This document shows, one piece after another, positions 10,646 through 49,319 of a stretch of 64,000 nucleotides of DNA; position 1 is the first letter of the stretch; every line of letters begins with the position of its first letter. This DNA comes from Escherichia coli. GTDB taxonomy: Bacteria > Pseudomonadota > Gammaproteobacteria > Enterobacterales > Enterobacteriaceae. The position numbers were made by a program, and so were the translations under genes. The notes beneath the pieces were generated by a model. That model searched no databases, was not told where the DNA came from, and worked only from the letters and a program-made list of their open reading frames with translations. The stretch lies in assembly GCF_003334255.1 (NCBI RefSeq), contig NZ_QOWU01000021.1. One strand, written 5' to 3'.

Positions 10646-10674
10646 ATCTCCCGGTTTTTTCGCCGGGAGATTTT
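10646..10674 (+). terminator. rho-independent terminator after ubiI
   Basis: atctcccgg-ttttttcg-ccgggagat stem-loop followed by TTTT. Confidence 0.7.
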
Positions 10675-10690
10675 CCTCATTTGAAATAAA

Positions 10691-10887
10691 CTAATTTCAC
10701 CTCCGTTTTCGCATTATATTTTCTAATGCCATTATTTTTTGATTTAGTGTTTTTTGACATTTTTTTAGCTCTTAATATTGTCTTATTCAAATTGACTTTC
10801 TCATCACATCATCTTTGTATAGAAACTGGTGTATTTTTTGGTTTTTTATTCTGTCGCGATTTTTGCATTTTTTAACCATAAGCTAAT
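10691..10887 (+). promoter_or_regulatory. gcvTHP control region: AT-rich leader with three CTAAT motifs (GcvA-type sites) upstream of gcvT
   Basis: ctaat at 10691-10695, 10723-10727 and 10883-10887; spacing resembles the known upstream (two adjacent) and promoter-proximal GcvA sites; exact promoter not resolved. Confidence 0.35.
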
Positions 10888-11050
10888 GTGATGATCAATT
10901 TTACCTTATGGTTAACAGTCTGTTTCGGTGGTAAGTTCAGGCAAAAGAGAACGATTGCGTTGGGGACCGGGAGTGGCTCCGATGCTGGGTTTCGTGGTGA
11001 TAATTTCACCATGAAAAAGTTGTCAGCCCCGCTTATTCAATGAGGACAAG

Positions 11051-12145
11051 ATGGCACAACAGACTCCTTTGTACGAACAACACACGCTTTGCGGCGCTCG
11101 CATGGTGGATTTCCACGGCTGGATGATGCCGCTGCATTACGGTTCGCAAATCGACGAACATCATGCGGTACGTACCGATGCCGGAATGTTTGATGTGTCA
11201 CATATGACCATCGTCGATCTTCGCGGCAGCCGCACCCGGGAGTTTCTGCGTTATCTGCTGGCGAACGATGTGGCGAAGCTCACCAAAAGCGGCAAAGCCC
11301 TTTACTCGGGGATGTTGAATGCCTCTGGCGGTGTGATAGATGACCTCATCGTCTACTACTTTACTGAAGATTTCTTCCGCCTCGTTGTTAACTCCGCCAC
11401 CCGCGAAAAAGACCTCTCCTGGATTACCCAACACGCTGAACCTTTCGGCATCGAAATTACCGTTCGTGATGACCTTTCCATGATTGCCGTGCAAGGGCCG
11501 AATGCGCAGGCAAAAGCTGCCACACTGTTTAATGACGCCCAGCGTCAGGCGGTGGAAGGGATGAAACCGTTCTTTGGCGTGCAGGCGGGCGATCTGTTTA
11601 TTGCCACCACTGGTTATACCGGTGAAGCGGGCTATGAAATTGCGCTGCCCAATGAAAAAGCGGCCGATTTCTGGCGTGCGCTGGTGGAAGCGGGTGTTAA
11701 GCCATGTGGCTTGGGCGCGCGTGACACGCTGCGTCTGGAAGCGGGCATGAATCTTTATGGTCAGGAGATGGACGAAACCATCTCTCCTTTAGCCGCCAAC
11801 ATGGGCTGGACCATCGCCTGGGAACCGGCAGATCGTGACTTTATCGGTCGTGAAGCCCTGGAAGTGCAGCGTGAGCATGGTACAGAAAAACTGGTTGGTC
11901 TGGTGATGACCGAAAAAGGCGTGCTGCGTAATGAACTGCCGGTACGCTTTACCGATGCGCAGGGCAACCAGCATGAAGGCATTATCACCAGCGGTACTTT
12001 CTCCCCGACGCTGGGTTACAGCATTGCGCTGGCGCGCGTGCCGGAAGGTATTGGCGAAACGGCGATTGTGCAAATTCGCAACCGTGAAATGCCGGTTAAA
12101 GTGACAAAACCTGTTTTTGTGCGTAACGGCAAAGCCGTCGCGTGA
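11051..12145 (+). CDS. gcvT: glycine cleavage system aminomethyltransferase (T protein)
   Basis: 364-aa [55 protein letters not shown]... Confidence 0.97.
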
Positions 12146-12168
12146 TTTACTTTTTTGGAGATTGATTG

Positions 12169-12558
12169 ATGAGCAACGTACCAGCAGAACTGAAATACAG
12201 CAAAGAACACGAATGGCTGCGTAAAGAAGCCGACGGCACTTACACCGTTGGTATTACCGAACATGCTCAGGAGCTGTTAGGCGATATGGTGTTTGTTGAC
12301 CTGCCGGAAGTGGGCGCAACGGTTAGCGCGGGCGATGACTGCGCGGTTGCCGAATCGGTAAAAGCGGCGTCAGACATTTATGCGCCAGTAAGCGGTGAAA
12401 TCGTGGCGGTAAACGACGCACTGAGCGATTCCCCGGAACTGGTGAACAGCGAACCGTATGCAGGCGGCTGGATCTTTAAAATCAAAGCCAGCGATGAAAG
12501 CGAACTGGAATCACTGCTGGATGCGACCGCATACGAAGCATTGTTAGAAGACGAGTAA
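12169..12558 (+). CDS. gcvH: glycine cleavage system H protein (lipoyl carrier)
   Basis: ORF 12166..12558 trimmed to ATG 12169 (129 aa); [34 protein letters not shown]...; lipoyl-lysine motif region. Confidence 0.97.
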
Positions 12559-12578
12559 CGGCTTTATTCCTCTTCTGC

Positions 12579-12626
12579 GGGAGAGGATCAGGGTGAGGAA
12601 AATTTATGCCTCACCCTCACTCTCTT
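12579..12626. repeat. GC-rich imperfect palindrome between gcvH and gcvP (gggagagg..gggtgagg / cctcaccc..ctctct)
   Basis: left arm 12579-12598, loop aaaatttatg, right arm 12609-12626; shares the gggtgagg/cctcaccc core with the element downstream of gcvP. Confidence 0.6.
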
Positions 12627-12676
12627 CGTAAGGAGAGAGGTTCACAATTCACTGCACGTTTCAGGAACCATCGCTC

Positions 12677-15550
12677 ATGACACAGACGTTAAGCCAGCTT
12701 GAAAACAGCGGCGCTTTTATTGAACGCCATATCGGACCGGACGCCGCGCAACAGCAAGAAATGCTGAATGCCGTTGGTGCACAATCGTTAAACGCGCTGA
12801 CCGGCCAGATTGTGCCGAAAGATATTCAACTTGCGACACCACCGCAGGTTGGCGCACCGGCGACCGAATACGCCGCACTGGCAGAACTCAAGGCTATTGC
12901 CAGTCGCAATAAACGCTTCACGTCTTACATCGGCATGGGTTACACCGCCGTGCAGCTACCGCCGGTTATCCTGCGTAACATGCTGGAAAATCCGGGCTGG
13001 TATACCGCGTACACTCCGTATCAACCTGAAGTCTCCCAGGGCCGCCTTGAAGCACTGCTCAACTTCCAGCAGGTAACGCTGGATTTGACTGGACTGGATA
13101 TGGCCTCTGCTTCTCTTCTGGACGAGGCCACCGCTGCCGCCGAAGCAATGGCGATGGCGAAACGCGTCAGCAAACTGAAAAATGCCAACCGCTTCTTCGT
13201 GGCTTCCGATGTGCATCCGCAAACGCTGGATGTGGTCCGTACTCGTGCCGAAACCTTTGGTTTTGAAGTGATTGTCGATGACGCGCAAAAAGTGCTCGAC
13301 CATCAGGACGTCTTCGGCGTGCTGTTACAGCAGGTAGGCACTACCGGTGAAATTCACGACTACACTGCGCTTATTAGCGAACTGAAATCACGCAAAATTG
13401 TGGTCAGCGTTGCCGCCGATATTATGGTGCTGGTGCTGTTAACTGCGCCGGGTAAACAGGGCGCGGATATTGTTTTTGGTTCGGCGCAACGCTTCGGCGT
13501 GCCGATGGGCTACGGTGGCCCACACGCGGCATTCTTTGCGGCGAAAGATGAATACAAACGCTCAATGCCGGGCCGTATTATCGGTGTATCGAAAGATGCA
13601 GCTGGCAATACCGCGCTGCGCATGGCGATGCAGACTCGCGAGCAACATATCCGCCGTGAGAAAGCGAACTCCAACATTTGTACTTCCCAGGTACTGCTGG
13701 CAAACATCGCCAGCCTGTATGCCGTTTATCACGGCCCGGTTGGCCTGAAACGTATCGCTAACCGCATTCACCGTCTGACCGATATCCTGGCGGCGGGCCT
13801 GCAACAAAAAGGTCTGAAACTGCGCCATGCGCACTATTTCGACACCTTGTGTGTGGAAGTGGCCGACAAAGCGGGCGTACTGACGCGTGCCGAAGCGGCT
13901 GAAATCAACCTGCGTAGCGATATTCTGAACGCGGTTGGGATCACCCTTGATGAAACAACCACGCGTGAAAACGTAATGCAGCTTTTCAACGTGCTGCTGG
14001 GCGATAACCACGGCCTGGACATCGACACGCTGGACAAAGACGTGGCTCACGACAGCCGCTCTATCCAGCCTGCGATGCTGCGCGACGACGAAATCCTCAC
14101 CCATCCGGTGTTTAATCGCTACCACAGCGAAACCGAAATGATGCGCTATATGCACTCGCTGGAGCGTAAAGATCTGGCGCTGAATCAGGCGATGATCCCG
14201 CTGGGTTCCTGCACCATGAAACTGAACGCCGCCGCCGAGATGATCCCAATCACCTGGCCGGAATTTGCCGAACTGCACCCGTTCTGCCCGCCGGAGCAGG
14301 CCGAAGGTTATCAGCAGATGATTGCGCAGCTGGCTGACTGGCTGGTGAAACTGACCGGTTACGACGCCGTTTGTATGCAGCCGAACTCTGGCGCACAGGG
14401 CGAATACGCGGGCCTGCTGGCGATTCGTCATTATCATGAAAGCCGCAACGAAGGGCATCGCGATATCTGCCTGATCCCGGCTTCTGCGCACGGAACTAAC
14501 CCCGCTTCTGCACATATGGCAGGAATGCAGGTGGTGGTTGTGGCGTGTGATAAAAACGGCAACATCGATCTGACTGATCTGCGCGCGAAAGCGGAACAGG
14601 CGGGCGATAACCTCTCCTGTATCATGGTGACTTATCCTTCTACCCACGGCGTGTATGAAGAAACGATCCGTGAAGTGTGTGAAGTCGTGCATCAGTTCGG
14701 CGGTCAGGTTTACCTTGATGGCGCGAACATGAACGCCCAGGTTGGCATCACCTCGCCGGGCTTTATTGGTGCGGACGTTTCACACCTTAACCTACATAAA
14801 ACTTTCTGCATTCCGCACGGCGGTGGTGGTCCGGGTATGGGACCGATCGGCGTGAAAGCGCATTTGGCACCGTTTGTACCGGGTCATAGCGTGGTGCAAA
14901 TCGAAGGCATGTTAACCCGTCAGGGCGCGGTTTCTGCGGCACCGTTCGGTAGCGCCTCTATCCTGCCAATCAGCTGGATGTACATCCGCATGATGGGCGC
15001 AGAAGGGCTGAAAAAAGCAAGCCAGGTGGCAATCCTCAACGCCAACTATATTGCCAGCCGCCTGCAGGATGCCTTCCCGGTGCTGTATACCGGTCGCGAC
15101 GGTCGCGTGGCGCACGAATGTATTCTCGATATTCGCCCGCTGAAAGAAGAAACCGGCATCAGCGAGCTGGATATTGCCAAGCGCCTGATCGACTACGGTT
15201 TCCACGCGCCGACGATGTCGTTCCCGGTGGCGGGTACGCTGATGGTTGAACCGACTGAATCTGAAAGCAAAGTGGAACTGGATCGCTTTATCGACGCGAT
15301 GCTGGCTATCCGCGCAGAAATTGACCAGGTGAAAGCCGGTGTCTGGCCGCTGGAAGATAACCCGCTGGTGAACGCGCCGCACATTCAGAGCGAACTGGTC
15401 GCCGAGTGGGCGCATCCGTACAGCCGTGAAGTTGCGGTATTCCCGGCAGGTGTGGCAGACAAATACTGGCCGACAGTGAAACGTCTGGATGATGTTTACG
15501 GCGACCGTAACCTGTTCTGCTCCTGCGTACCGATTAGCGAATACCAGTAA
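12677..15550 (+). CDS. gcvP: glycine dehydrogenase (decarboxylating), P protein
   Basis: 957-aa [41 protein letters not shown]...; PLP-dependent. Confidence 0.97.
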
Positions 15551-15572
15551 TTCACTGATTCGACTATTTTCT

Positions 15573-15596
15573 AAAGGCGCTTCGGCGCCTTTTTAG
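15573..15596 (+). terminator. rho-independent terminator of gcvTHP operon
   Basis: aaaggcgc-ttcg-gcgccttt followed by TTTT. Confidence 0.8.
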
Positions 15597-15629
15597 TCAG
15601 ATGACAAAGTACAAAAGTGCTCAGACAGT

Positions 15630-15730
15630 CCCCTCGCCCCTTTGGGGAGAGGGTTAGGGTGAGGGGAACAGGCCGGCACTGGCGCGAATATTTACCCTCA
15701 CCCCGGCCCTCTCCCTGAAAGGGCGAGGGG
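15630..15730. repeat. ~100-bp GC-rich inverted-repeat element (arms cccctcgcccctttggggagagggttagggtgagggg / ccctcaccccggccctctccctgaaagggcgagggg)
   Basis: Two ~36-bp arms that are near reverse complements of each other, separated by ~28 bp; intergenic between gcvP and ygfF; repeat family not assigned. Confidence 0.6.
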
Positions 15731-15816
15731 GAAAAGCGTGCCAACATTGAAGATTGAGCCAGTTTGTTAGCAATCTCAAAGATACGTCAACGAATTAATT
15801 TTTCTCGGAAAAACAA

Positions 15817-16560
15817 ATGGCTATAGCACTTGTGACTGGTGGCAGTCGCGGCATCGGGCGGGCAACTGCATTACTGTTGGCGCAAGAAGGGTATACGGTG
15901 GCGGTTAATTATCAGCAAAACCTCCACGCGGCGCAGGAAGTGATGAACTTAATAACGCAAGCCGGTGGCAAAGCATTCGTGCTCCAGGCGGATATCAGCG
16001 ACGAAAACCAGGTCGTTGCGATGTTTACAGCAATCGATCAGCACGATGAACCGCTAGCAGCGCTGGTCAATAACGCCGGGATCTTGTTTACCCAGTGCAC
16101 CGTTGAAAACCTTACCGCAGAGCGAATCAACCGAGTACTTTCCACCAACGTGACGGGATATTTTCTCTGCTGCCGCGAGGCGGTAAAACGCATGGCGCTT
16201 AAAAATGGTGGCAGTGGCGGCGCTATCGTCAATGTCTCTTCGGTGGCCTCACGGTTGGGTTCGCCAGGGGAATATGTTGATTACGCGGCATCGAAAGGGG
16301 CGATTGATACGTTAACCACCGGACTATCGCTGGAAGTCGCCGCGCAGGGGATCCGCGTTAACTGCGTGCGGCCAGGGTTTATTTATACCGAAATGCACGC
16401 CAGCGGCGGCGAGCCTGGACGCGTCGATCGCGTTAAGTCGAACATCCCCATGCAGCGTGGTGGACAGGCAGAAGAGGTCGCGCAGGCCATTGTCTGGCTA
16501 CTAAGTGATAAAGCCTCTTACGTCACGGGAAGTTTTATCGATTTGGCGGGCGGGAAATAA
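15817..16560 (+). CDS. ygfF: short-chain dehydrogenase/reductase (SDR) family oxidoreductase YgfF
   Basis: 247-aa ORF MAIALVTGGSRGIGRATALLLAQEGYTVAVNY...; TGxxxGxG NAD(P)-binding motif. Confidence 0.92.
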   Translation: MAIALVTGGSRGIGRATALLLAQEGYTVAVNYQQNLHAAQEVMNLITQAGGKAFVLQADISDENQVVAMFTAIDQHDEPLAALVNNAGILFTQCTVENLTAERINRVLSTNVTGYFLCCREAVKRMALKNGGSGGAIVNVSSVASRLGSPGEYVDYAASKGAIDTLTTGLSLEVAAQGIRVNCVRPGFIYTEMHASGGEPGRVDRVKSNIPMQRGGQAEEVAQAIVWLLSDKASYVTGSFIDLAGGK

Positions 16561-16578
16561 AACAGGGAAGTTGTCTGA

Positions 16579-16604
16579 CCGGATGCAACAAGTATTGCAT
16601 CCGG
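16579..16604. terminator. bidirectional hairpin between convergent ygfF and bglA
   Basis: ccggatgcaa-caagta-ttgcatccgg perfect 10-bp stem. Confidence 0.55.
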
Positions 16605-16616
16605 TACTTCATCGAC

Positions 16617-18077
<1,461 letters not shown>

Positions 18078-19242: not shown

Positions 19243-19400
19243 GTAGGCCTGATAAGACGCGCCAGCGTCGCATCAGGCATCGGAGCACAACTGCCGGATT
19301 CGGCGTGAACGCCTTATCCGATCTACGGGCCTCGTCCCTGTTGTGATAAAGGCATCAAATCCCAGACATGATAAGACGCGCCAGCGTCGCATCAGGCGAT
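19243..19400. repeat. cluster of three REP (repetitive extragenic palindromic) elements between yqfA and ygfZ
   Basis: gtaggcctgataagacgcgccagcgtcgcatcaggca (19243-19279), gccggattcggcgtgaacgccttatccgatctac (19293-19326), gacatgataagacgcgccagcgtcgcatcaggcg (19366-19397). Confidence 0.85.
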
Positions 19401-49111: not shown

Positions 49112-49319
49112 TGGCCGGATGGTATTACCCACCCGGCCTGAGACTGATGACAAACGCCAAATTGCCTGATGCGCTACGCTTATCAGGCCTACAAGTGCAT
49201 TGCAATCTATTGAATTTGCGATGTTTTGTAGGACGGATAAGGCGCTCGCGCCGCATCCGGCATCAACAAAGCGCACTTACTTGACAATCTTTGGCCGGAT
49301 GGTATTACCCACCCGGCCT
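49112..49319. repeat. two REP elements bracketed by a perfect 28-bp direct repeat (tggccggatggtattacccacccggcct)
   Basis: direct repeat copies at 49112-49139 and 49292-49319; REPs gcctgatgcgctacgcttatcaggcctac (49164-49192) and gtaggacggataaggcgctcgcgccgcatccggca (49228-49262). Confidence 0.8.

Follow-up and report, generated by a model that had tools for sequence, protein, structure and literature searches.

Intercistronic REP/BIME sequences reportedly stabilise upstream mRNA and give differential operon expression, as Newbury, Higgins and co-workers are said to have found in 1987 for malE-malF and hisJ-hisQ. ERIC/IRU is likewise an enterobacterial intergenic palindromic repeat. The BoxC family, also called PIT elements or TMECO triplex motifs, has been known since the 1990s and follows the consensus CCCTCNCCC N3-6 GGGNGAGGG N3 GGGNGAGGG. 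Holder et al. 2015 listed 23 TMECO copies, found their loci more variable between strains than control loci and not associated with transposons, phages or plasmids, and summarised reporter tests in which PIT/BoxC elements had neither promoter nor terminator activity. At the level of the operon, the closest described case is that of Dickeya dadantii, in which an internal terminator after gcvH, with an estimated ~71% termination, yields a gcvTH transcript as well as read-through into gcvP and was described as consistent with work on E. coli (Forquet et al. 2022, PMC9239193); beyond that remark, our search of the literature on an E. coli gcvH-gcvP hairpin or terminator found nothing specific.

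We analysed a 64-kb stretch of E. coli DNA (the window; all coordinates are positions in it) that contains the gcvTHP operon. The initial annotation had described related palindromes on both sides of gcvP, and inverted-repeat analysis located them there: one in the gcvH-gcvP spacer, the other after the gcvP terminator (Table 1). Both belong to the known BoxC family; we consider the full explanation developed below, which gives both elements a BoxC origin and the spacer a role in RNA, likely, and hold it with good confidence.

The E. coli spacer resembles a REP/BIME arrangement in that a stable repeat-derived hairpin stands between a cistron whose product is required in larger quantity and the one that follows, and in that an abundant RNA 3' end lies just past the hairpin; it differs in its sequence family, and mRNA stabilisation by BoxC is a candidate effect. 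Neither region (12559-12676 or 15596-15816) contains a REP core (GCCGGATGCGGCG-like) at ≤3 mismatches, as the initial annotation had held, and REP-like matches occur elsewhere in the window, e.g. at 19266-19397 and 49249. The ERIC/IRU repeat is found in the same spacer of other genera, but is unrelated in sequence to the E. coli elements and absent at both gcv sites of the window. The Dickeya dadantii terminator occupies the same operon position; the spacers of D. undicola and D. oryzae, the two Dickeya species sampled, have a canonical GC hairpin followed by a T run, whereas the E. coli spacer hairpin derives from a repeat and has no good U tract after it.

Table 1 Features at and around the two palindromes (positions in the 64-kb window)
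Feature	Position	Strand	Description
RNA hairpin 1	12568-12587	+	8 bp, loop UGCG; MFE and centroid fold
Spacer left arm, probable decayed BoxC	12569-12598	+	CCTCTTC-TGCG-GGAGAGGA-TCA-GGGTGAGGA
Central RNA hairpin	12590-12617	+	9 bp, 10-nt loop; fold
Spacer right arm, probable, more decayed BoxC	12609-12640	-	profile match
RNA hairpin 3	12620-12639	+	8 bp, loop GUAA; fold; within right arm
Dominant gcvTH RNA 3' end	12621	+	Term-seq, MG1655 3,049,097 minus strand
Conserved gcvP leader	12649-12676	+	Shine-Dalgarno AGGA (12663-12666); outside repeat
gcvP intrinsic terminator	15573-15595	+	8-bp GC hairpin, T run, 3' end at 15595; inverted repeat, fold, Term-seq
Composite repeat unit, approximate extent	15596-15780		pair and conserved flanks; paralogue comparison
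Canonical BoxC, TMECO #11	15631-15666	+	type A, one mismatch, TTA second loop
Loop between the two BoxC copies	15667-15693		conserved among paralogous pairs
Canonical BoxC, TMECO #10	15694-15729	-	type B, one mismatch, CCG second loop

The BoxC pair downstream of gcvP

The inverted repeat 3' of gcvP (arms 15630-15668 and 15692-15730, 39 nt, 82% complementary, 23-nt gap) is intergenic, lying between the annotated genes gcvP and ygfF. Comparison with catalogued E. coli intergenic repeats, which the initial annotation had proposed as a check, identified it exactly: the plus-strand and minus-strand arms are string matches to TMECO #11 and TMECO #10, respectively, in Table 1 of Holder et al. 2015, and the genome coordinates agree. 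The arms match the published consensus regex at 15631-15665 (+) and 15695-15729 (-), and score 43.4 bits (E=2e-12) and 35.2 bits (E=8e-10), respectively, against a TMECO profile in nhmmer. The pair joins one type A and one type B copy in inverted orientation, and is among the five such pairs published for MG1655 (Holder et al. 2015); its predicted RNA fold is very stable (-76.6 kcal/mol, z = -7.9 vs shuffles).

The idea that the palindromes form a distinct small repeat family holds with respect to dispersal: searching with the downstream element returned a median of 17 and a maximum of 31 BoxC-matching places per genome (5409 of 5426 E. coli genomes), with copy numbers ranging from 1 to 31, 21 in a K-12 record, and only 57 of 83,843 places on plasmids. 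The family is not an uncatalogued one, however, because the published table already has the downstream arms as #10 and #11; to that extent the recognition of an apparently new repeat is a clean-up. Some strains carry additional BoxC loci outside the published K-12 list, e.g. at yijF-gldA. Paralogue comparison also shows that the repeat unit is larger than the palindrome: the loop between the two copies is common to the yijF-gldA pair and to the K-12 pairs fepB-entC and alx-sstT; identity to the paralogous yijF-gldA copy in strain CFSAN018748 is ~88% over ~15613-15780, with weaker similarity reaching back to ~15592; and flanks resembling those of the gcvP pair are also present at fepB-entC. Two minus-strand ORFs of 58 aa and 41 aa over the downstream pair are taken as spurious because they lie inside repeat sequence. 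In a search of 10000-18000 at E≤1, Rfam returned sub-threshold generic long hairpins (eukaryotic miRNA precursors, HCV stem-loop, whalefall-1; best scores ≤33.5 bits vs gathering scores ≥71), which we rejected as meaningless.

The initial annotation had also raised the possibility that these structures act on gcvP mRNA. For the downstream pair this proposal fails on position: the Term-seq 3' end of the gcvP terminator, at MG1655 3,046,123 on the minus strand (mapped onto the window via NC_000913.3 gcvP, 3,046,168-3,049,041), lies 35 nt before the pair begins, and among the ends listed around gcvP none falls inside the pair. The full downstream locus is carried by 3027-3052 of 5426 E. coli genomes (~56%), and the pair is dispensable, as it is missing from about 44% of them. 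Pair-less strains diverge from 15595/15596 onward; in E. coli 536, the one pair-less genome inspected, both the pair and ygfF are absent, and the difference is a ~1-kb replacement that includes ygfF, with no clean element-sized indel. It is virtually certain that the downstream element is a BoxC inverted pair located outside the gcvTHP transcript, and we regard it as a selfish or neutral, structure-prone repeat without demonstrated local function.

The gcvH-gcvP spacer and the mapped RNA 3' end

The spacer palindrome (12568-12640) lies wholly between gcvH and gcvP, and its inverted repeat has 29-nt arms at 12570-12598 and 12609-12637 (72% complementary, 10-nt gap). In an nhmmer search with a profile built from the 23 published TMECOs, the left arm is the third-best match in the window (E=0.012, 12.3 bits, model positions 13-34), behind the two canonical copies, and the right arm is the fourth-best (E=6.9, model positions 2-33), the latter not significant on its own. 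The left arm fits 19 of 21 positions of the pattern GGGAGAGGGNNNGGGTGAGGG (2 mismatches); at ≤3 mismatches this pattern occurs at three places in the window (12579(+), 15645(+) and 15695(-)), as against a mean of 0.02 in shuffles, none of 100 of which reached three. The two elements share this motif, and the relationship claimed between them is borne out.

The spacer arms share with BoxC/PIT/TMECO elements the block order (C-stem, G-stem, 3-nt loop, G-stem), the intergenic location and the topology of a canonical pair, with G-rich ends facing inward on opposite strands. They depart from the family in several respects: they read CCTCTTC for CCCTCNCCC, and GGAGAGGA and GGGTGAGGA for GGGNGAGGG; they are absent from the published list of 23; and the spacer is fixed in E. 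coli, whereas BoxC loci are reported to be variable. The copy count suggested by the initial annotation, which revealed a dispersed family for the downstream element, gave the opposite result here: BLAST at E≤0.01 found no spacer paralogues (median of one place per genome in 5426 E. coli genomes), and the spacer is therefore not an active member of a dispersed family. Since the strict published regex has no match in the spacer and the profile similarity is only partial, we file the spacer as a decayed relic; and since its loops read TCA and TGA, its BoxC type is not assignable. The partial profile match, the common pair topology and the canonical pairs found at the equivalent site in related genera together make it very likely that the spacer is a decayed inverted BoxC pair, now fixed in E. 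coli. It is present in all 5426 E. coli genomes, with ≥95% identity in all but one; all five polymorphic positions among six sampled E. coli alleles fall in hairpin loops; and one strain carries a 52-nt inverted duplication within the palindrome.

The spacer RNA is predicted to fold into three hairpins (-40.5 kcal/mol, z = -5.65 vs shuffles). Hairpin 1 is formed by the C-stem and first G-stem of the left arm, and its stem does not vary among the E. coli alleles sampled. The central hairpin is built from the two inward-facing GGGTGAGG / CCTCACCC blocks; its stem is invariant and its loop polymorphic among the same alleles, and the stem is retained in a divergent Escherichia locus (L002). In hairpin 3, the single E. 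coli polymorphism seen falls in the loop. The dominant RNA 3' end at 12621 lies 4 nt past the central stem. In Supplementary file 1 of Adams et al. 2021, a Term-seq file that spans three growth conditions, this end (3,049,097(-)) is entered three times and scores 412,219 and 171,112 in two of the three entries, while the gcvP terminator end scores 36,065 (Adams et al. 2021); the difference is ~11-fold, in scores that are not strict molar ratios. The SMRT-Cappable-seq supplements available as text hold no gcv entries.

Given a dominant end 4 nt past the stem with ~11 times the score of the gcvP terminator end, the spacer most probably fixes where a gcvTH transcript ends and reduces the amount of gcvP mRNA. 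The proposal that the palindromes affect mRNA structure, which fails for the downstream pair, thus survives for the spacer. Because most transcripts appear to end at this point, the central hairpin may either terminate transcription partially or block 3'-to-5' exonucleases after a downstream cut; either route would leave stable gcvTH RNA and less gcvP mRNA. We regard this sequence of events, from the three-hairpin fold to the reduced gcvP mRNA, as fairly probable; the 3' end itself is shown by published Term-seq data, and the causal step from hairpin to that end is inferred. The 12621 end could also be a decay intermediate without effect on gcvP output. Counting against the model, the central hairpin joins a GC-rich 9-bp stem to a loop of 10 nt and a tail poor in U (UCACUCUCUU), unlike a canonical intrinsic terminator, and PIT/BoxC elements had no terminator activity in the reporter tests cited above. 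A promoter/terminator consensus scan gave no call for the gcvP terminator or for any spacer hairpin, and found no promoter-like sites in 12000-16200.

Other explanations of the two palindromes

The likeness of the spacer to BoxC could be due to chance because both are made of GGGNGAGG / CCTCNCCC blocks, in which case the spacer would contain independent hairpins, for example a degenerate terminator. The failure of the published consensus, the fact that only one arm gets to E=0.012, the single-copy status by BLAST and the frequency of post-gcvH hairpins in genera without a BoxC match in the spacer are all compatible with such an origin. Against it, both spacer arms are the next-best profile matches in the 128 kb searched, adjacent to each other, on opposite strands and in the usual pair topology; the motif count far exceeds that of shuffles; and canonical BoxC pairs stand at an equal offset from the gcvH stop in other species and align with the E. 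coli spacer. We consider an unrelated spacer quite improbable. The spacer structures might instead control translation of gcvP, through occlusion of the ribosome-binding site or translational coupling, rather than transcript ends. The hairpins do lie within the 118-nt gcvP leader, in which the final 28 nt upstream of the ATG vary little or not at all between genera, and the MFE fold places part of the Shine-Dalgarno sequence in a weak local hairpin; but the strong hairpins stop at 12639, 24 nt before the Shine-Dalgarno sequence, and are not paired with it in the MFE or centroid fold, the conserved leader is outside the repeat, and the published data show an RNA end and no translation effect. 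Control of gcvP translation, another suggestion of the initial annotation, found no evidence in our analysis and is highly improbable.

Two further explanations concern the family as a whole. The arms may act at the DNA level, as intrastrand purine-motif triplexes in transiently single-stranded DNA that stall replication or repair and cause local instability, with no role in RNA. Type A mm and type B mm oligonucleotides, the types carried by the downstream gcvP arms, form very stable triplexes in vitro that melt at 70-74 C (Holder et al. 2015), and the strain variability of TMECO loci, the polymorphism of the gcvP-ygfF locus, whose sequence breaks exactly at the repeat-unit boundary, and the inverted duplication in the spacer of one strain all fit local instability. 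However, DMS footprinting gave no sign of a triplex in vivo, nor was one found in double-stranded DNA (Holder et al. 2015); the spacer arms are off consensus, and reading them by eye gives 2 mismatched triplets as well as T-G mismatches within the Watson-Crick stem; the left spacer arm alone folds as DNA no better than shuffles (z = -0.33, in a Watson-Crick-only model); and the spacer is stable across E. coli. A purely DNA-level role is therefore unlikely in our judgement. Alternatively, BoxC pairs with their flanks could be MITE-like non-autonomous transposable units, and both gcv elements insertion scars without host function. A repeat unit of ~150-190 bp with a loop and flanks common to paralogous pairs, the wide range of copy number, the strain-dependent presence of one locus together with extra loci such as yijF-gldA, and a spacer that hosts REP, ERIC or BoxC depending on the genus are what such units would produce; yet we identified no target-site duplication, palindrome-independent terminal inverted repeat or partner transposase, the family has no reported association with mobile elements and few plasmid-borne copies, and the strain-536 difference is a replacement that takes in ygfF. 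Transposition of this kind is somewhat unlikely to account for both elements.

The same spacer in other genera

We compared 79 gcvH-gcvP spacers among the loci listed, a set that does not include Salmonella, E. albertii or E. fergusonii. Classes were assigned by regex and by eye and form a rough tally, in which Photorhabdus terminators were missed and ERIC was over-called in a few loci. Canonical BoxC pairs are present in the spacer of at least four species (E. cloacae, E. wuhouensis, E. asburiae and Pseudocitrobacter); they start ~9 nt past the gcvH stop, as does the E. coli spacer pair, and align with it column by column, the E. coli right arm with the BoxC copy that Enterobacter spacers carry on the minus strand. 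In P. gergoviae, isolate RIT691 and MAG L009, the plus-strand BoxC copy alone reaches threshold. The Escherichia and Enterobacter pairs may be either inherited or independently inserted. Among the loci listed, the spacer holds REP in Citrobacter, Lelliottia and some Enterobacter species and, by this approximate classification, ERIC in some genomes of Citrobacter, Kluyvera, Klebsiella oxytoca and Atlantibacter. Farther afield, in D. undicola, D. oryzae and other distant genera, a canonical GC hairpin precedes a T run at this place, and the Erwinia spacer, at 23 nt, has no hairpin. The sequence upstream of the gcvP leader turns over, while 12649-12676 is invariant or nearly so across 12 Enterobacteriaceae spacers.

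These comparisons raise the tentative possibility, which we would put at somewhat less than even, that the gcvH-gcvP spacer is a "hairpin slot" that selection maintains to make gcvTH RNA longer-lived or more abundant than gcvP RNA. Such a slot would have been refilled over evolution, with an intrinsic terminator in Dickeya, Serratia, Providencia and Shewanella and with REP, ERIC or BoxC in Enterobacteriaceae; in E. coli, a captured BoxC pair would have been reshaped by C-to-T decay of its outer stems into a three-hairpin 3'-end module; and, in general, BoxC elements would be REP-like 3'-end protectors at the RNA level. If true, this would provide a function for a repeat family that has gone without an assigned role for ~30 years and for which reported terminator reporter tests were negative.

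The BoxC family and the listing of the copy after gcvP are prior knowledge. What goes beyond them is a decayed intra-operon BoxC pair that was overlooked by consensus-based catalogues and that lies at the site of the operon's strongest mapped 3' end, offering a testable explanation for the E. coli gcvTH transcript separate from gcvP. If confirmed, this pair and the offset discussed next would aid annotation and shed light on the recruitment of selfish palindromic repeats, without overturning current views. A recurrent 4-nt offset between BoxC-derived stem and 3' end points to a possible role in RNA for these repeats, which have so far drawn attention chiefly as DNA triplex motifs: in Term-seq data the same 4-nt offset is found at glnH-glnP, where the K-12 spacer holds a BoxC element with a mapped end, in the lldD 3' UTR and at TMECO #20, and 3-4 nt separate stem and end at a fifth BoxC site.

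Family identity of the palindromes flanking gcvP

The palindromes that the initial annotation described on both sides of gcvP, in the glycine-cleavage operon encoded by the plus strand of the window, are real: the predicted stability of their RNA folds lies far above shuffled controls (z = −5.6 to −7.9), and the full elements folded as DNA give z = −3.8 to −6.4. Both are built from the same motifs, as proposed; GGGAGAGGGNNNGGGTGAGGG, with at most three mismatches allowed, has three matches in the window (vs. 0.02 in shuffles), all of them within these two elements. A scan of both regions found no REP core, in agreement with the view that they are not REP sequences. REP core matches with 0–2 mismatches at window 19266-19397 and 49249-49262 suggest, by sequence, that true REP/BIME elements lie in other parts of the window. 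Both palindrome regions are 100% identical to K-12 records, and because gcvP occupies 3,046,168-3,049,041 on the minus strand of NC_000913.3, coordinates were converted as window = 12677 + (3,049,041 − genome coordinate).

Features of the gcv locus, related BoxC copies and Term-seq 3′ ends near BoxC stems
Feature	Position	Strand	Remark
gcvT	11051-12145	+	annotated gene
gcvH	12169-12558	+	annotated gene
gcvP	12677-15550	+	annotated gene
ygfF	15817-16560		next gene 3′ of gcv operon
Spacer arms	12570-12598; 12609-12637		29 nt each, 72% complementary, 10 nt apart
Downstream arms	15630-15668; 15692-15730		39 nt each, 82% complementary, 23 nt apart
Spacer profile match	12577-12598	+	E=0.012
Spacer profile match	12640-12610	-	E=6.9
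TMECO #11, type A, one mismatch	15631-15666	+	letter-for-letter identity (string comparison by script)
TMECO #10, type B, one mismatch	15694-15729	-	letter-for-letter identity (string comparison by script)
Predicted RNA hairpins of spacer	12568-12587; 12590-12617 (central); 12620-12639
gcvH-gcvP spacers of other species	L001-L080, about 5388-5600 in each
BoxC copies downstream of gcvP, other genera	L010:6642-6676; L014:9206-9240; L017:9261-9365; L019:9209-9240
glnH-glnP intercistronic spacer	Term-seq end 847,200	-	4 nt past first hairpin of BoxC
lldD 3′ UTR, TMECO #17	Term-seq end 3,781,065	+	4 nt past BoxC stem
TMECO #20	Term-seq end 3,959,467	-	4 nt past BoxC stem
Fifth site	Term-seq end 4,231,270	-	offset 3-4 nt

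Blastn of 15620-15740, which spans the downstream element, against 5426 complete E. coli genomes gave matches in 5409, nearly all chromosomal, with a median of 17 and a maximum of 31 places per genome; the downstream element is therefore a dispersed repeat. The spacer element between gcvH and gcvP, by contrast, is single-copy by BLAST in these 5426 genomes. BoxC, a palindromic E. coli repeat described in the 1990s, was found again under the name “potential intrastrand triplex” (PIT) elements and subsequently renamed TMECO, with the consensus CCCTCNCCC N3-6 GGGNGAGGG N3 GGGNGAGGG and 23 MG1655 copies in Table 1 of Holder et al. 2015. The downstream pair is one of the five inverted pairs of type A and type B published there, and the published coordinates (3,046,087-3,046,052 and 3,045,989-3,046,024) convert exactly to the window positions of TMECO #11 and #10. 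Given this exact match, the downstream element counts as previously catalogued. The idea of a distinct small repeat family thus holds as to family status, although that family, BoxC/PIT/TMECO, has long been known and its downstream copy had been tabulated.

The gcvH-gcvP spacer in E. coli and other species

From sequence comparison, we conclude that the spacer element represents a decayed inverted BoxC pair fixed in E. coli; each of the 5426 genomes has it, and in all except one the identity is ≥95%. This assignment is based on three observations: in a profile of the 23 published copies run over the whole window, the spacer ranks right behind the two canonical copies; the G-stem/loop/G-stem block of the spacer matches the canonical motif except at 2 of its 21 positions; and canonical pairs occupy the same site elsewhere. 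The G-rich ends of its arms face inward, an arrangement shared by four of the five K-12 pairs in the published table. As a strict TMECO regular expression found no match in the spacer, we regard the element as a relic and not as a canonical member of the family.

Other species were compared at 80 listed loci retrieved with GcvH, a set that leaves out Salmonella and other named Escherichia species. Among these, canonical BoxC pairs lie in the same spacer in Enterobacter cloacae, E. wuhouensis, E. asburiae and one Pseudocitrobacter genome, beginning ~9 nt past the gcvH stop and oriented as in E. coli, and the BoxC-bearing spacers align column by column with that of E. coli. Pluralibacter gergoviae and two other genomes have a plus-strand copy alone above threshold, other genomes among the loci listed carry a bare CCCTCTCCC...GGGAGAGGG hairpin, and the pair is decayed in a similar way in L002, a divergent Escherichia lineage. 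For these loci, BoxC in the E. coli and Enterobacter spacers may reflect either inheritance or independent insertion. Across Enterobacteriaceae, the stretch right after gcvH holds REP/BIME (several Citrobacter, Lelliottia and Enterobacter), ERIC (others) or BoxC (Enterobacter cloacae group) by genus, in a regex-based, approximate tally; two Erwinia species have a 23-nt spacer without a hairpin. The 28 nt preceding the gcvP start codon (12649-12676, TCACTGCACGTTTCAGGAACCATCGCTC), which contain the Shine-Dalgarno sequence, are invariant or nearly so in 12 enterobacterial genomes, and the spacer upstream of them is replaced between genomes. The spacer is a hot spot for palindromic repeats of different kinds. 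In the spacer of one E. coli strain, VTB96775v (L093:72-249), a 52-nt insertion corresponding to window 12590 looks as if the central hairpin and hairpin 3 had been duplicated in inverted orientation, suggesting a rearrangement mediated by the palindrome.

Transcript boundary and polymorphism of the downstream pair

MG1655 Term-seq data place the gcvP RNA 3′ end at 3,046,123(−) (Adams et al. 2021, Supplementary file 1), i.e. window 15595, the base following the T run of an 8-bp GC terminator hairpin. Since the downstream pair starts 35 nt past this end, and none of the RNA ends in the part of the listing examined lies inside it, the pair is outside the gcvTHP transcript; the suggested action of this palindrome on gcvP mRNA is therefore without support. 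Two mechanical minus-strand ORFs of 58 and 41 aa (15571-15747 and 15654-15779) cross the pair and are probably spurious, as they are made of repeat sequence.

The full gcvP-ygfF BoxC locus is present in 3027–3052 of the 5426 genomes, about 44% of complete E. coli genomes being without it. E. coli 536, one such genome that we inspected, lacks both the pair and ygfF, and gcvP is followed directly by bglA across a different 165-nt spacer (L081:3101-3267 vs. window 15596-16616); similarity stops exactly after the gcvP terminator T run and restarts within the end of bglA. The repeat unit exceeds the palindrome: a yijF-gldA copy in another strain has ~88% identity to window 15613-15780, with weaker similarity back to about 15592, and the loop of the pair is common to the K-12 pairs at fepB-entC and alx-sstT, the flanks also at fepB-entC. 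In Lelliottia, Enterobacter wuhouensis, Pseudocitrobacter and Enterobacter sp. ENT03, BoxC occurs ~820–940 nt past the gcvP end, one gene farther than in E. coli.

TMECO-type oligonucleotides form very stable triplexes in vitro, triplex was not detected in vivo or in duplex DNA, and strain-to-strain variability is higher at TMECO loci than at control loci (Holder et al. 2015). A role in DNA triplex formation or instability is plausible for the canonical downstream pair, given its polymorphic locus and the published in vitro triplex; for the spacer such a role is a poor fit, given its decay and its extreme stability in the population. A MITE-like mobile origin of BoxC pairs is compatible with the conserved flanks and varying copy number; target-site duplications and a partner transposase were not found. 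That the spacer resembles BoxC by chance is unlikely in view of its profile ranks, its topology and the orthologous canonical pairs.

RNA ends at the spacer and at other BoxC loci

The operon's dominant RNA end maps within the spacer. The Term-seq 3′ end at 3,049,097(−) is listed three times in the file of three growth conditions, with scores of 412,219 and 171,112 vs. 36,065 at the gcvP terminator end (Adams et al. 2021, Supplementary file 1); it is labelled “orphan” solely because it lies 63 nt beyond the gcvH stop. It maps to window 12621, 4 nt past the end of the stem of the central hairpin in a predicted fold of three hairpins rather than a single long one (−40.5 kcal/mol in total, 49% of the ensemble). 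A Dickeya dadantii transcriptome (PMC9239193) reports an internal terminator past gcvH with ~71% termination, said to agree with E. coli studies. The spacer opens with a GC hairpin and then a T run in Dickeya, Serratia, Providencia, Yersinia, Photorhabdus, Shewanella and others; Pantoea also has such a terminator-like arrangement.

The central hairpin of E. coli is not followed by a proper U tract, and the terminator scan did not pick it up; two mechanisms therefore remain for the 12621 end. The hairpin could direct inefficient hairpin-dependent termination, or a downstream cut or Rho-dependent stop could be followed by exonuclease trimming back to it; either would be expected to yield stable gcvTH RNA and less gcvP RNA. 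On this model, the spacer probably works through a three-hairpin RNA that sets the gcvTH RNA end. Control of gcvP translation by the hairpins, as also proposed, finds no support, as in the predicted fold they stop 24 nt before the Shine-Dalgarno sequence and form no base pairs with that sequence. Across the six E. coli alleles sampled, the 118-nt spacer varies at five positions, every one of them in the loop of a hairpin and not in a stem (by our own count, a chance of ~0.002 for five sites spread randomly to fall on the 22 unpaired of 72 palindrome positions), which fits constraint on the stems or, alternatively, loop hypermutability.

A 3′ end 4 nt past a BoxC-derived stem recurs at three further sites among the ends listed in the same Term-seq file, and a fifth site has a similar offset. 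The glnH-glnP spacer (L088, NC_000913.3 847,119-847,258) carries a full-length single BoxC (31.5 bits, transcribed strand) outside the published 23 TMECOs. Comparable intercistronic REP elements are known in malE-malF and hisJ-hisQ, and resemble this pattern of stem and RNA end. At the sites noted, the pattern sits uneasily with the report that PIT elements have no promoter or terminator activity (per Holder et al. 2015), and fits a role as exonuclease barrier. The BoxC/PIT/TMECO family and its downstream copy were known before; a decayed, fixed BoxC pair at the dominant RNA end of the operon is a modest, testable addition and not a new kind of element. Two further strong Term-seq 3′ ends, unrelated to the repeats, lie 65 nt within gcvT (3,050,602(−), about window 11116) and in the gcvT 5′ leader (3,050,723(−), about window 10995).
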